Both the position numbers and the translations under genes were made by a program. The notes under the pieces were generated by a model. It saw only the letters and a list, made by a program, of their open reading frames with translations, was not told where the DNA came from and made no database searches. 64,000 nt of DNA from Alphaproteobacteria bacterium (GTDB lineage: Bacteria; Pseudomonadota; Alphaproteobacteria; GCA-2731375), in assembly GCA_965232515.1 (NCBI GenBank), contig CBDDPY010000002.1, forward strand, positions 3,424,001-3,488,000, in the 5' to 3' direction. Position 1 is the stretch's first letter. Every line of letters begins with the position of its first letter. Positions 1-4,296 of this stretch are shown here, in pieces.

Positions 1-792
1 GGCGCGCCAGAGGCAGTGCTTGATCGGCGCCGGGCTGGGCTCGGCGAACAGCAGGCGGGCGAGATCGACGAGGTCGCGCCACAGGCGCAGCGCGCCCGGC
101 TGATCGCCGGCGATCAACGCGTCGCGGACGGCGGCGAAGGCCGCGGTCTCGATATGGGCCGAGGCGAGAATGCCACCGTCGGCGCCCTGGGTGAGCGCCG
201 TATAGAACAGGGCGTCCTCGCCGGTCAGCACGCTGAATCCGGGCGGCCGGTCGCGCAGCAGGTCGAAGGACTGCGCCGCGTTCACGCAGCAGTCCTTGAC
301 GCCGACGATATTCGGGAGCTCGGCCAGGCGCAGCAGTGTCTCGTTCGCGAGGTTGACGCCGGTGCGGTAGGGGATGTTGTAGAGCACGACCGGACGGTCG
401 GTGCGGCCGGCGAGCGTGGCGAAGTGGCGGTAGAGGCCTTCCTGCGGCGGCCGGCTGTAGTAGGGACAGGTGATGAGATAGCCGTCGACCGGCCAGGTCT
501 CGGCGCGGTCGAGCGCCGCGGTCAGCCGGCGGGTATCGCTGCCGGAGAGGCCGAGGAACACCGGCCGCCGGCCGTTCACCGTCTCCGTTGCGATGGCGGC
601 CAGGCGCTCGGTCTCGGCGTCGTCGATGGTGAGGCCCTCGCCCGTGGTCGCGGCCATGATGAAACCGTCGACCGGCTGGTCGAGGTAGTGCGCGATCAGG
701 CGCGTGAGCGAGGTTTCGTCAAGACGTCCGTCGTTGAACGGCGTGATCAGCGGCAGCCAGAGGCCCTGTATCGGTGTGGTTTGCTGTTGCAT
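1..792 (-). CDS. dapA: 4-hydroxy-tetrahydrodipicolinate synthase (DapA) family protein, 3' end runs off the window
   Basis: Not in the ORF track. Manual translation from ATG at 792 gives MQQQTTPIQGLWLPLITPF...AATTGE...CPYYSRP...LYNIPYRTG...IVGVKDC, containing the TT, Tyr, Tyr and Schiff-base Lys motifs of DapA. GGAG RBS upstream. May be a paralogue rather than the housekeeping copy. Confidence 0.85.
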   Translation of the reverse strand, partial: MQQQTTPIQGLWLPLITPFNDGRLDETSLTRLIAHYLDQPVDGFIMAATTGEGLTIDDAETERLAAIATETVNGRRPVFLGLSGSDTRRLTAALDRAETWPVDGYLITCPYYSRPPQEGLYRHFATLAGRTDRPVVLYNIPYRTGVNLANETLLRLAELPNIVGVKDCCVNAAQSFDLLRDRPPGFSVLTGEDALFYTALTQGADGGILASAHIETAAFAAVRDALIAGDQPGALRLWRDLVDLARLLFAEPSPAPIKHCLWRA

Positions 793-836
793 GTGTCTGC
801 TCCGGTTTGCGGCGCTGCCGGCGGAACGGACACTCG

Positions 837-871
837 AAAAAAGAAACGGCCCCGTCCGGTCCGGCGGGGCC
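837..871 (-). terminator. Intrinsic terminator in the dapA leader (attenuator terminator)
   Basis: Minus strand reads GGCCCCG-CCGGACCGGA-CGGGGCC-GTTTCTTTTTT, about 45 nt upstream of the dapA start codon. Confidence 0.8.
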
Positions 872-897
872 TGTCGATGGTCGATGCGCCTATCGGC

Positions 898-975
898 TTA
901 GCGCGCGCAGAAACCTTCCGTCCCCGGGATGAGGAACGTTTTCAGTTTCAACGTCGTGGCGGGCCGATACCGCAT
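898..975 (-). CDS. Putative leader peptide MRYRPATTLKLKTFLIPGTEGFCAR (25 aa)
   Basis: ATG at 975 to TAA at 898-900. Contains ACG ACG TTG AAA CTG AAA ACG. Lies between a promoter-like motif and the terminator. Confidence 0.65.
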   Translation of the reverse strand: MRYRPATTLKLKTFLIPGTEGFCAR

Positions 976-981
976 GGCCGC

Positions 982-1009
982 ATTCTCGCGGCATGCCGTG
1001 GAAAGTCAA
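982..1009 (-). promoter_or_regulatory. Putative sigma70 promoter for the dapA leader
   Basis: TTGACT-N16-GAGAAT followed by 6 nt and then the leader ATG, which implies a leaderless start. Confidence 0.55.
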
Positions 1010-1013
1010 TCGA

Positions 1014-2120
1014 CTAGACGGTGGCGCCGTAATCCGCCGGCAGGGCGACGTGCAGCAGCTCCAGATCGCCGCTGTCGCTGTTGAGCGCGTAAGTCATGTC
1101 GGCGGGAATCACAAAGGCGTCGCCGGGCGCCAACGCCTGCGGGTCGTCGCCGTCAGCGCTGAGCGTCGCGGCGCCGGTCAACACGAAGCCGAACAGGAAT
1201 TCAGCCGCGTGGCGGTGCGGCGGCAAGCCGCCGCCGGACGGGAAGCGGACCACACGCACATCGGCGAGGCCGTCGGTCGCGGCCGAGATGCCGATGTCGC
1301 GGGTTTCCGTGCCGTCGAAGCGCCAGGGACGCCACGTGGCGGTCGCGGCCTGGTGGCGGACGAAGCGCTGTCCGCCGAAGTCGCGGTCGGGCTTGACCAA
1401 AGATGTCGGCAGTTCGAGCGCGTGGTCGGCGCAGGTCAGGTGCTCGGCCGGGCAGCCGATCTCGACCACTTCCAGGCCGGGGGAGCATTCGACGACGCGG
1501 TGGCGGATCTCGGGCGGCTGCAGCACGCAGTCGCCGGCGAACATGCGGAACAGCGGCCCCTGATCCTCGTAGAGCAGATCGACCCAGCCCTTGTAGCAGT
1601 AGATCATCTGAAAGCGGATCTTGTGGAAGTGCACCATGTCGGGCACCGGGCCGCCGTCGGGGATGCGGATATGCGAGGCGATGAAGCGCCCGCCCTGACG
1701 GTCGGGAATGAGATCGCGGTACTGCATGCCGGCGCGACCGACGCCCCAGGCATCGGCGCCGTCGGTCATGCGGGTGACCACAAGGGATGGCGCCGGCGGC
1801 GGCAGGTCGAGCGGCGGGTCGGCGGCGACCAGCTCGATGCGCGTGCCGTTCGGCGCGGTCAGCGTCGGCGCGCCGTCAGCGAGATCGGACGGATTACCGC
1901 AATGCAGGCGGATCACGCCCGGCGCGCATTCGGCATCGCGGTCGAGACGCAGGCGCAAACCGTGGCCGGACAGCACGGCGACAGCCGGATCGTCGGCCGG
2001 AAAGACCACGTCGAGACGGAAGCCGAGACGCTCGCGGAAAAAGGCCAGCGTCTCGTCAAGGACGACGCACGGCAGCACGACTTCGGCCGCCGCGATTCCT
2101 CGGTCATCGGTTTCCGTCAC
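1014..2120 (-). CDS. VOC/glyoxalase-like N-terminal domain fused to two cupin domains
   Basis: N-terminal LDETLAFFRERLGF; cupin motifs VHFH...FQMIYCYKGWV...GDCVLQPPEIRH and PHRH...FGFVLTGAA...GDAFVIPADM. AGGAG RBS, GTG start. Confidence 0.75.
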   Translation of the reverse strand: MTETDDRGIAAAEVVLPCVVLDETLAFFRERLGFRLDVVFPADDPAVAVLSGHGLRLRLDRDAECAPGVIRLHCGNPSDLADGAPTLTAPNGTRIELVAADPPLDLPPPAPSLVVTRMTDGADAWGVGRAGMQYRDLIPDRQGGRFIASHIRIPDGGPVPDMVHFHKIRFQMIYCYKGWVDLLYEDQGPLFRMFAGDCVLQPPEIRHRVVECSPGLEVVEIGCPAEHLTCADHALELPTSLVKPDRDFGGQRFVRHQAATATWRPWRFDGTETRDIGISAATDGLADVRVVRFPSGGGLPPHRHAAEFLFGFVLTGAATLSADGDDPQALAPGDAFVIPADMTYALNSDSGDLELLHVALPADYGATV

Positions 2121-3849: not shown

Positions 3850-4296
3850 TTAAGGCCGGTTGTCGTTCGACGTTTCGTAGACGGGTTCGGCCGACGCCGC
3901 GTCGCGCATGATGTCGGCAACCGTCGTGTAGGCGTCCGTCCAGGCCAATTCCGCTTCCGGTGTCCAGGCCGCGCCCAAGCCCTGCGCCAAGGTCCAAAGC
4001 AGCGCCTGGCCAACGGTGTCGTACTGCGCATCGGTGACGCCGTAGCCCACATGTCGGCGACCAAGGTCCTCGATCGCCGGCACCATCGACTCGAGGTCGT
4101 CCAGATTGTCGACGACGGCGCTGAGCGTCGCCATCAGCTTTTCGCGCTGCGCCGCCATGTCCGTGTCTTTGAACAGCGGCCGTGCGCTGGGATCGACTTC
4201 GAACAAGCGGTCATAAAACAGCCGGGCCGCCGTATCGGCGATCGGCGTCACCAGCGCCCAGGTCTCGCGCAGAATGCGTTTCTGCTCTGGCGTCAT
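3850..4296 (-). CDS. Single-domain globin, copy 2
   Basis: Same motifs as copy 1 (LFYDRLFEVDP, TDMAAQREKL, IEDLGRRHVGYGVT, VGQALLWTL). GGAG RBS. Confidence 0.92.
   Translation of the reverse strand: MTPEQKRILRETWALVTPIADTAARLFYDRLFEVDPSARPLFKDTDMAAQREKLMATLSAVVDNLDDLESMVPAIEDLGRRHVGYGVTDAQYDTVGQALLWTLAQGLGAAWTPEAELAWTDAYTTVADIMRDAASAEPVYETSNDNRP

Follow-up and report, generated by a model that had tools for sequence, protein, structure and literature searches.

A Candidate Lysyl-tRNA-Sensing Attenuator Upstream of a Second dapA-Like Gene in Alphaproteobacteria

Introduction

Leader-peptide attenuation is known for Trp, His, Thr, Leu, Ile/Val, and Phe, and lysine synthesis, of which DapA catalyses the committed step, is the textbook case of control by the L-box riboswitch or by protein regulators. 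Here, we analyse an element located on the minus strand at positions 793–1009 of a 64,000-nt stretch of alphaproteobacterial DNA (assembly GCA_965232515.1, contig CBDDPY010000002.1, positions 3,424,001–3,488,000). This whole stretch is referred to as the window, and all coordinates are positions in it. The element lies directly ahead of a gene of the dapA family, and a preliminary description of the sequence had proposed it to be a lysine-sensing, ribosome-dependent transcription attenuator.

In the enterobacterial attenuators (the trpL, hisL, thrL, leuL, pheL, and ilv leaders), a short leader with codons for the end product precedes hairpin 1:2, the pairings 1:2, 2:3, and 3:4 are mutually exclusive, and an intrinsic terminator lies ahead of the structural gene; the element described here shares this layout, and its three pairings are predicted to exclude one another in the same way. 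It differs from them in the proposed sensing of lysine, in having one to four sensor codons, a predicted leaderless mRNA and a 5-bp antiterminator, in an open reading frame (ORF) enclosed in a P1-P2-P3 structure that buries its own start codon, and in a hairpin sequestering the Shine-Dalgarno (SD) sequence as a second output; no match to them was found by sequence or in Rfam. Translational attenuation of the ermC/cat type is also related, as an antibiotic together with the nascent peptide stalls the leader ribosome, downstream hairpins rearrange, and the SD sequence of the next gene is freed; in the present element, in contrast, the proposed cause of the stall is a shortage of charged tRNA, and a terminator is part of the switch in most members. 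The lysine riboswitch (L-box, RF00168) likewise controls lysine genes at the RNA level, through premature termination or occlusion of the ribosome-binding site (RBS), but it binds lysine directly with a large five-helix aptamer, whereas the present element would use a ribosome reading Lys codons.

Seliverstov et al. 2005 (PMC1262725) list the L-box as RNA-level control of lysine genes. Within the Alphaproteobacteria, the trpL leader of Sinorhizobium meliloti (peTrpL/rnTrpL) resembles our element in having its ORF at the 5′ end of the transcript (PMC10117765, PMC6614838), but it senses Trp, precedes another gene, and has a known trans-acting role (PMC6614838, PMC7968998). In the same species, Hadjeras et al. 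2023 (PMC10117765) describe SEP5, a small ORF containing six Thr codons and three Lys codons within the 5′-untranslated region of an aspartate-pathway gene, the translation of which was shown by Ribo-seq and Western blot and for which the authors suggested a leader-peptide role. In its codon content, it resembles the asd leaders with Thr and Lys codons that carry the hairpin module presented below; it differs from the element of the window in being a mixed Thr/Lys leader ahead of another gene, with a leader role that is a suggestion only. No description of a Lys-only leader peptide, or of an attenuator before dapA, was found in the literature searched, the nearest approach being this Thr/Lys small ORF of Sinorhizobium; subscription papers on attenuation in proteobacteria may bear on novelty.

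Results

Conservation of the Leader across Orthologous Loci

Our analysis argues that the element is likely to be a ribosome-dependent attenuator sensing Lys-tRNA, as had been proposed, and that it probably acts on both the termination of transcription and the initiation of translation. This assignment draws on the anatomy, conservation, reading frame, codon bias, and covariation of the leader and on the match between leader codons and pathway, all of them seen by comparison of sequences: the combination of Lys codons, leader ORF, stop codon, and hairpin recurs in 52 of 57 orthologous loci, leaders of the same family carry codons that match the pathway of the gene behind them, and the antiterminator pairing appears in 44 of 54 folds computed with a stalled ribosome.

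A DNA search for the leader was carried out in 61 genomes, the source genome and 60 relatives. It was matched with 88% identity in a genome of the same genus and, in one belonging to another family, with 70% identity over a stretch that begins at the ATG and finishes precisely where the hairpin does; both leaders precede the orthologous gene, and the upstream gene is different in each. A protein-guided scan with one genome per species gave 60 loci, of which three were set aside (one without upstream DNA and two distant ones from Actinoplanes). Among the remaining 57, the full layout was found in 52, that is, a −35 box of the TTGAC type, a leader ORF, one or more Lys codons beside hairpin P3, a stop codon, and a hairpin. 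A conserved Lys-bearing short ORF ahead of a hairpin, of the kind that the preliminary description had suggested looking for in homologous leaders, is thus widespread. The start codon is ATG in 48 of these loci and GTG in 4, the distance from the −35 box to it is 35–36 nt in 49 and 37–39 nt in 3, the ORF has 19–29 codons, and the stop lies 22–32 nt ahead of the hairpin, named hairpin 3:4 here. One additional locus contains the element without an in-frame stop, in a contig that also breaks the dapA frame, and the element is absent from four loci (two of Telmatospirillum, one of Chloroflexota, and one hit of 50% identity). The genes upstream of the element differ among loci. Judged from this recurrence of the whole layout, the arrangement is not due to chance. 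The set of 54 sequences used below comprises the window, the genome of the second family, and the 52 loci with the full layout.

One of the Telmatospirillum loci, devoid of the Lys leader, showed a different hairpin with a T-run and an RBS adjoining a CTCCGGC motif, and may have kept the output module while its sensor was exchanged.

The promoter, the 25-codon ORF, the terminator with its T-run, and the dapA RBS listed in the preliminary description were all located in the window, and so were the two complementarities that it pointed out: CGGGG (926–922) is complementary to CCCCG (869–865), and GCCGATA (897–891) pairs with TATCGGC of the 5′ end in the predicted fold. The TTGACT/GAGAAT pair is the sole promoter-like match on the minus strand in 3 kb, where two matches were found overall against 0.3 expected. 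The transcript is predicted to start at or beside the A of the ATG at 975, yielding a leaderless mRNA, because the distance from promoter to ATG is fixed across orthologues. An intrinsic terminator (871–848 plus the T-run at 846–837) separates the leader ORF from the structural gene. It did not appear in the output of a simple terminator scan, because of the bulged A in its stem, and is visible in the predicted fold.

Codon Content of the Leader

All the 54 leaders contain in-frame Lys codons, from one to four each, the last one being directly 5′ of P3 and ending 10–15 nt ahead of a GGGG run; attenuators are expected to have codons for the regulating amino acid near the first hairpin, and this is the case for Lys in 54 of 54. 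The preference for AAA in the leader over AAG in neighbouring genes, first remarked in the window, holds across orthologues, with 83 AAA and 24 AAG in the leaders (78% AAA) against 32 AAA and 214 AAG (13% AAA) in the 52 downstream genes. The source genome encodes one tRNA-Lys(UUU) and one tRNA-Lys(CUU), so the sensor codon AAA is the rare one and is read by a single tRNA. In three Neoroseomonas leaders, AAG AAG takes the place of AAA AAA, which keeps Lys and breaks the A-run.

The spacing between the ATG and the Lys codons changes by whole codons, with gaps of 3 and 6 in the 5′ part of the alignment. In the leader frame, 54 of 54 sequences have their first stop codon in the interval from the GGGG run to the downstream hairpin, against 5 of 54 and 14 of 54 for the two remaining frames, a count that is partly built in for the leader frame, as the ORFs had been chosen for a stop after 15–35 codons. 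The leader peptides diverge strongly, and every conserved residue apart from Lys is accounted for by RNA pairing, being fixed by stems, such as Gly from GGG and Arg from GCGCGC. The alternative that Thr codons are the ones sensed, also considered in the preliminary description, found no support, since Thr makes up 5.8% of the residues of the 54 leaders and is not conserved.

Predicted RNA Structure and Switch Geometry

The predicted fold of the 206-nt leader has an energy of −85.5 kcal/mol (z = −2.5 against shuffles, 3 of 200 shuffles being equally stable). Without a ribosome, the leader is predicted to form a single long irregular hairpin, P1-P2-P3. P1 joins the 5′ end, including the start codon, to the stretch past the stop, and in 38 of 54 minimum-energy folds it has at least 5 pairs, made by sequences that are unrelated to one another; P2 joins the codons before and at the first Lys to the region ahead of the stop; and P3, composed of a pyrimidine-rich strand, a loop, and GGGG, forms a local hairpin in 50 of 54 folds. 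Alignment of the whole leader with MAFFT followed by RNAalifold recovered hairpin 3:4 only, and P1 and P3 were analysed sequence by sequence because they were out of register there. Covariation is seen in P1 and in P3, where it involves pairs 5 to 7 counted from the loop, pair 5 being GC in 18 sequences, CG in 10, UA in 10, and AU in 1.

The sequence of hairpin 3:4 is almost invariant, its bulged or mismatched A included: the inner pairs stay the same in 52 of 52 distinct rows, and only the two outer pairs covary (AU 17, GC 17, GU 9, and AU 28, GC 11, GU 7). Such invariance would be expected if region 3, its 5′ arm, must pair with more than one partner. On the other side of the T-run, at least three of the four SD bases are paired in 45 of 53 orthologues, and the helix that holds them has 65.5% of its alignment cells paired and five pairs changed on both sides; this helix and hairpin 3:4 together show 77% of cells paired against 38–53% in slid controls. 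Beside the anti-SD strand, 38 of 53 sequences have a 5-nt complement (CCGGC) of the GCCGG that lies within the 5′ arm of hairpin 3:4, with a mean longest match of 4.5 nt against 1.6 nt in shuffles. We also considered that CCGTC, which lies upstream of the anti-SD strand, might pair with the 3′ arm of hairpin 3:4, but its longest complement (4.3 nt) hardly exceeded that of shuffles (3.4 nt), and the GCCGG:CCGGC pairing was preferred.

The effect of a stalled ribosome was simulated by masking the RNA up to 12 nt past the last Lys codon and leaving the 3′ arm of hairpin 3:4 unsynthesised. Under these conditions, CCCC of the terminator arm pairs with GGGG of P3 in 44 of 54 sequences. The bases of this 2:3 pairing never vary, and hence no covariation signal is possible for it, whereas the 1:2 and 3:4 pairings are well supported. 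A T-run is missing in 10 of 54 orthologues that keep the hairpin, by our own reading of the alignment, so termination cannot be the universal output, and the hairpin must do more than terminate. This feature was absent from the preliminary description, as were the SD-sequestering hairpin and the nature of the target as a second DapA copy.

Leaders Sharing the Same Hairpin

The invariant hairpin was used as a module pattern, CCCCGCCGG-N-GACGGGG, and the grouping that results is defined in the present analysis and is not a published family; the window shows the −35 spacing (35–39 nt to the start codon), ORF (about 19–30 codons), stop (22–33 nt ahead of the invariant hairpin), and downstream anti-SD/SD hairpin that characterise its layout. 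The pattern occurs twice in the source genome. At the second site (contig 2, about 5455555–5455784, plus strand), a TTGACA box and a leaderless ATG are followed by a 30-codon ORF with nine Thr and no Lys, an 8-bp antiterminator fully complementary to the terminator 5′ arm, and then the same hairpin and an SD hairpin. The gene behind this Thr leader encodes a threonyl-tRNA synthetase of 399 amino acids (aa), matching TIGR00418 with 450.9 bits over model positions 167–562 of 565 and lacking the N-terminal part. A strict scan of the source genome for a promoter, a leaderless short ORF, and a terminator gave four hits, two of which are the Lys and Thr leaders.

In a class-wide sample of 401 genomes of Alphaproteobacteria, the pattern gave 56 hits in 47 genomes, and a reversed-pattern control gave about 29 hits (counted from the table), which implies that many of the 56 are due to chance. 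Out of 51 hits examined, 28 showed the layout of promoter, leader ORF, and hairpin, and 23 did not. Downstream genes were assigned by NCBIfam or by N-terminal likeness, and leader residues were counted by hand from the printed peptides. Eleven leaders precede asd, all of them with at least two Thr and at least two Lys codons and ten with at least three Thr; eight precede truncated thrS-like genes, with two to nine Thr and zero or one Lys; and six precede the dapA paralogue, with Lys and, one leader excepted, no run of at least three Thr.

In this comparison, leader codon content is seen to track the pathway of the controlled gene. The Thr- and Lys-containing asd leaders look like multivalent attenuators of a shared step of the aspartate pathway, and the presence of both sensor codons before the gene of the shared enzyme, with one each before the branch genes, is the strongest argument that the Lys codons stand for a lysine signal. 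On balance, we are inclined to see the element of the window as the lysine arm of a modular family of leaderless attenuators in Alphaproteobacteria, in which a near-invariant output module would be combined with exchangeable sensor codons (Lys for the dapA paralogue, Thr plus Lys for asd, and Thr for truncated thrS) and a single stalled ribosome would control termination and translation initiation. The output module would consist of hairpin 3:4 (bulged A included), a T-run that may be absent, and the SD hairpin linked to hairpin 3:4 by GCCGG:CCGGC. The element would then be the first lysyl-tRNA-sensing attenuator, relying in some lineages on a single rare AAA codon. Membership in such a family, a second DapA as the target, and an output that very likely includes the opening of the RBS would all extend what had been suggested for the window.

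Several further features were seen among these hits. Some asd leaders also carry Met codons, and several of their hairpins lack a T-run. Two of the eight thrS-like leaders are rich in Ile, Val, and Thr instead of having a pure Thr run. The three remaining leaders, with other peptides, precede genes other than asd, thrS, or dapA: one is a 365-aa ORF, another a small protein that may be acetyltransferase-like, and another an ORF beginning like a methyltransferase, overlapped by a different ORF that matched no NCBIfam family. In the source genome, a leader before asd was looked for and no match was found, asd following directly an upstream gene that we take to be leuB-like from its translated end. 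The other two hits of the strict scan (contig 2, at 2877290 and 967150, minus strand) encode peptides of 19 and 29 residues with no obvious codon run, and may be chance matches or other small genes. A relaxed hairpin pattern gave 71 hits, mostly ordinary terminators, and was uninformative.

The Gene behind the Leader

The protein encoded behind the leader scored 228.6 bits against TIGR00674, the dapA equivalog model with a cut-off of 206.15, and therefore passes it narrowly; 60 matches were listed of 93 in the PDB, and all 60 of those listed are named dihydrodipicolinate (4-hydroxy-tetrahydrodipicolinate) synthase (DHDPS). The source genome has eight members of the family, of which the best dapA match (324.7 bits) sits elsewhere and the leader-bearing gene is the second best. 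The same was found in five other genomes carrying the element, where the leader-bearing gene is a second copy (207–225 bits) beside a canonical dapA (316–342 bits). The element would thus control a DHDPS-like paralogue, with enzyme activity predicted from these matches. No conserved operon partner was found 3′ of the paralogue among the orthologous loci, where the downstream ORFs vary (CoA-transferase, urocanase, GNAT, DUF459, OMP decarboxylase, others, or no family).

Known RNA Families and Transcripts

A scan of window positions 600–1300 against Rfam, with E values up to 10, gave chance-level matches only, the best being COG3860 on the other strand (E = 0.13); over the leader itself, Streptomyces-metH reached 16.9 bits for a gathering score of 50. 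The lysine riboswitch (RF00168) was matched neither in that scan nor in the whole genome, where 0 of 123 candidates passed. In public metatranscriptomes, two contig sets hold a relative with 90–97% similarity, covering flanking coding regions only (557–784 and 1071–1295) and silent on leader expression; two raw-read RNA runs gave no match to the locus and were likewise uninformative on this point.

Discussion

Proposed Mechanism

In the mechanism that we propose, transcription would start at or beside the A of the leader ATG, and the emerging 5′ end would at once be available for a ribosome to load. With ample Lys-tRNA, the ribosome would complete the 25 codons and reach the stop, about 28 nt ahead of the downstream hairpin; region 2 (GGGG, 925–922) would then re-pair with region 1 (938–932), hairpin 3:4 with its T-run would terminate transcription, and the RBS of the dapA paralogue would also be locked in its own hairpin. 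If no ribosome loaded, the same OFF state would be reached, through the folding of the entire leader into the long P1-P2-P3 hairpin. With scarce Lys-tRNA, the ribosome would stall at AAA, the rare Lys codon read by tRNA-Lys(UUU) only, and cover region 1, leaving region 2 available for pairing with CCCC(G) in region 3. The terminator would be blocked and transcription would proceed, while the freed GCCGG of region 3 could pair with CCGGC and open the RBS, and the committed step of lysine synthesis would gain a second DHDPS-like enzyme. By its sequence features, the element would work like a classical attenuator, with an output that very likely includes the opening of the RBS. The parts of this scheme that we infer are the 3:5 pairing, the way in which the switch turns, the transcription start, and the translation of the leader, for which the conserved frame and stop, the fixed distance from promoter to ATG, and the translated SEP5 ORF of S. 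meliloti as an analogue offer indirect support.

If the scheme is correct, lysine would join the amino acids sensed directly by the ribosome, and the tuning of the committed lysine step in many Alphaproteobacteria without an L-box would be explained. It would also point to a starvation-induced second DHDPS, the feedback properties of which would be worth measuring, and to an output module reused with different sensor codons (asd, thrS, dapA), making both the evolution and the design of attenuators directly testable. Finally, engineering in Alphaproteobacteria would gain a compact lysine sensor based on the ribosome.

Alternative Explanations

A number of observations weigh against lysine sensing by this mechanism. 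The sequences compared are related, so that the counts overstate their independence, and only one Lys codon is present in 17 of the 54 leaders, a low number for sensing starvation. The A-rich stretch is also part of an internal loop or P2 strand within a conserved structure, and selection at the RNA level could account for some of its conservation. The 2:3 antiterminator has only 5 bp (CGGGG:CCCCG), against about 10 pairs in the terminator stem and antiterminators of 8–9 bp in other leaders of the family, and P1, if formed at the back of the stalled ribosome, would cross the 2:3 pairing, a configuration beyond the reach of fold programs. The short, unvarying 2:3 pairing and this crossing are where the mechanism is weakest. 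The missing T-run in the 10 orthologues mentioned above and the complement of the 3′ arm to downstream sequence, barely over shuffles (4.3 against 3.4 nt), point in the same direction. In addition, the regulated gene is a paralogue barely above the dapA cut-off, with DHDPS activity predicted only, and the RNA-seq contigs of the relative cover the flanking genes and not the leader.

Could these features be accounted for without a lysine attenuator? It is extremely improbable that the hairpin simply serves to terminate the upstream cupin gene and that the hexamers and the ORF are coincidental: the hairpin does lie 143 nt past the stop (1016–1014) of that same-strand gene, and intergenic intrinsic terminators are common, but the element travels with the dapA paralogue behind unrelated genes, such as a 451-aa gene in the genome of another family of the same class, and the T-run is only 44 nt from the ATG of the paralogue, with no second promoter-like site seen between them. 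A translation-independent riboswitch or protein-binding RNA, with P1-P2-P3 as the aptamer or protein site, hairpin 3:4 as the platform, and an incidental ORF, would fit the closed three-tier hairpin, its covarying stems, and its conserved loop bases (AAA, GGAG-like, and GCGCGCG), as well as the sequence invariance of hairpin 3:4 and its bulged A even where the T-run is lacking, which resembles a recognition site; the source genome, moreover, has no lysine riboswitch. However, such an RNA seems very unlikely to us, as it leaves aside the fixed distance of the start codon from the promoter, the length differences in whole codons, and the in-frame stop in 54 of 54 sequences, a pure RNA motif would not predict the AAG-for-AAA swaps, and only codon reading explains why the same platform carries ORFs with a Thr run or with Thr plus Lys before thrS and asd. 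No Rfam family matched either, the best hit being far under the gathering score.

A leader that is translated without being specific for lysine, acting as a general coupling sensor or through nascent-peptide arrest (for instance, at Lys-Lys-X-Pro) in response to another signal, would agree with the Lys codons followed by Pro or Arg codons in many leaders, with the single Lys codon in 17 of them, and with a 2:3 helix weak enough for any slowing of the ribosome to suffice. We regard it as unlikely, given that residues other than Lys are not conserved apart from the stem-fixed Gly and Arg, that, across the family, the codons of the leader agree with the pathway to which the regulated gene belongs, and that the bias towards the rare AAA fits tRNA sensing. 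Lys-tRNA-dependent attenuation could also be accompanied, without being replaced, by an action in trans, either of the leader RNA that termination would yield (about 140 nt) or of its peptide, as happens with the trp attenuator RNA of Sinorhizobium. The terminated RNA would be stable and highly structured, and rnTrpL/peTrpL provide a precedent in the same class (PMC6614838, PMC7968998), but conservation of the peptide is confined to Lys and to residues fixed by the structure, and this addition appears distinctly unlikely.

Features of the Locus and Its Neighbourhood

The coordinates of the features described above are collected in Table 1.

Table 1. Features of the leader and its adjacent genes, with coordinates in the 64,000-nt window.
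Feature	Position	Strand	Basis and remarks
−35 box TTGACT	1004–1009	minus	Promoter scan
−10 box GAGAAT	982–987	minus	Promoter scan; spacer to −35 box of 16 nt
Leader ORF, 25 codons plus TAA stop (900–898)	898–975	minus	ATG at 975, 6 nt past −10 box
Putative sensor codons AAA (948–946), CTG, AAA (942–940)	940–948	minus	Sequence; AAA are codons 10 and 12
P1, 5′ strand, taking in UG of the start codon	963–974	minus	Predicted fold; partner 897–885
P1, 3′ strand, immediately past the stop codon	885–897	minus	Predicted fold
P2, 5′ strand (irregular), containing the first Lys codon	944–960	minus	Predicted fold; partner 915–901
P2, 3′ strand	901–915	minus	Predicted fold
P3 hairpin (regions 1 and 2): 5′ strand 938–932, loop 931–926, 3′ strand 925–919 with invariant GGGG	919–938	minus	Predicted fold
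Hairpin 3:4: 5′ arm with CCCCGCCGG (869–861), 3′ arm with GGACGGGG (857–850), bulged/mismatched A	848–871	minus	Fold and alignment
T-run TTTCTTTTTT	837–846	minus	Sequence; renders hairpin 3:4 an intrinsic terminator in the source genome
CCGGC, complement of GCCGG in the 5′ arm of hairpin 3:4	817–821	minus	Complementarity count in orthologues
Predicted hairpin sequestering the SD sequence (GGAG, 803–800) of the dapA paralogue	793–833	minus	Predicted fold and orthologues
dapA-family gene, ATG at 792	1–792	minus	Full ORF; extends beyond the window start, 296 aa when complete
Upstream cupin-domain gene (Pfam Cupin_2)	2120–1014	minus	Domain match; stop 1016–1014

Further upstream on the minus strand, the window contains two paralogous ORFs of 146 and 148 aa (2149–2589 and 3850–4296), 1.3 kb apart and with very similar N-termini. 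Between them, on the opposite strand, lies a 301-aa ORF, which may encode a LysR-type regulator.

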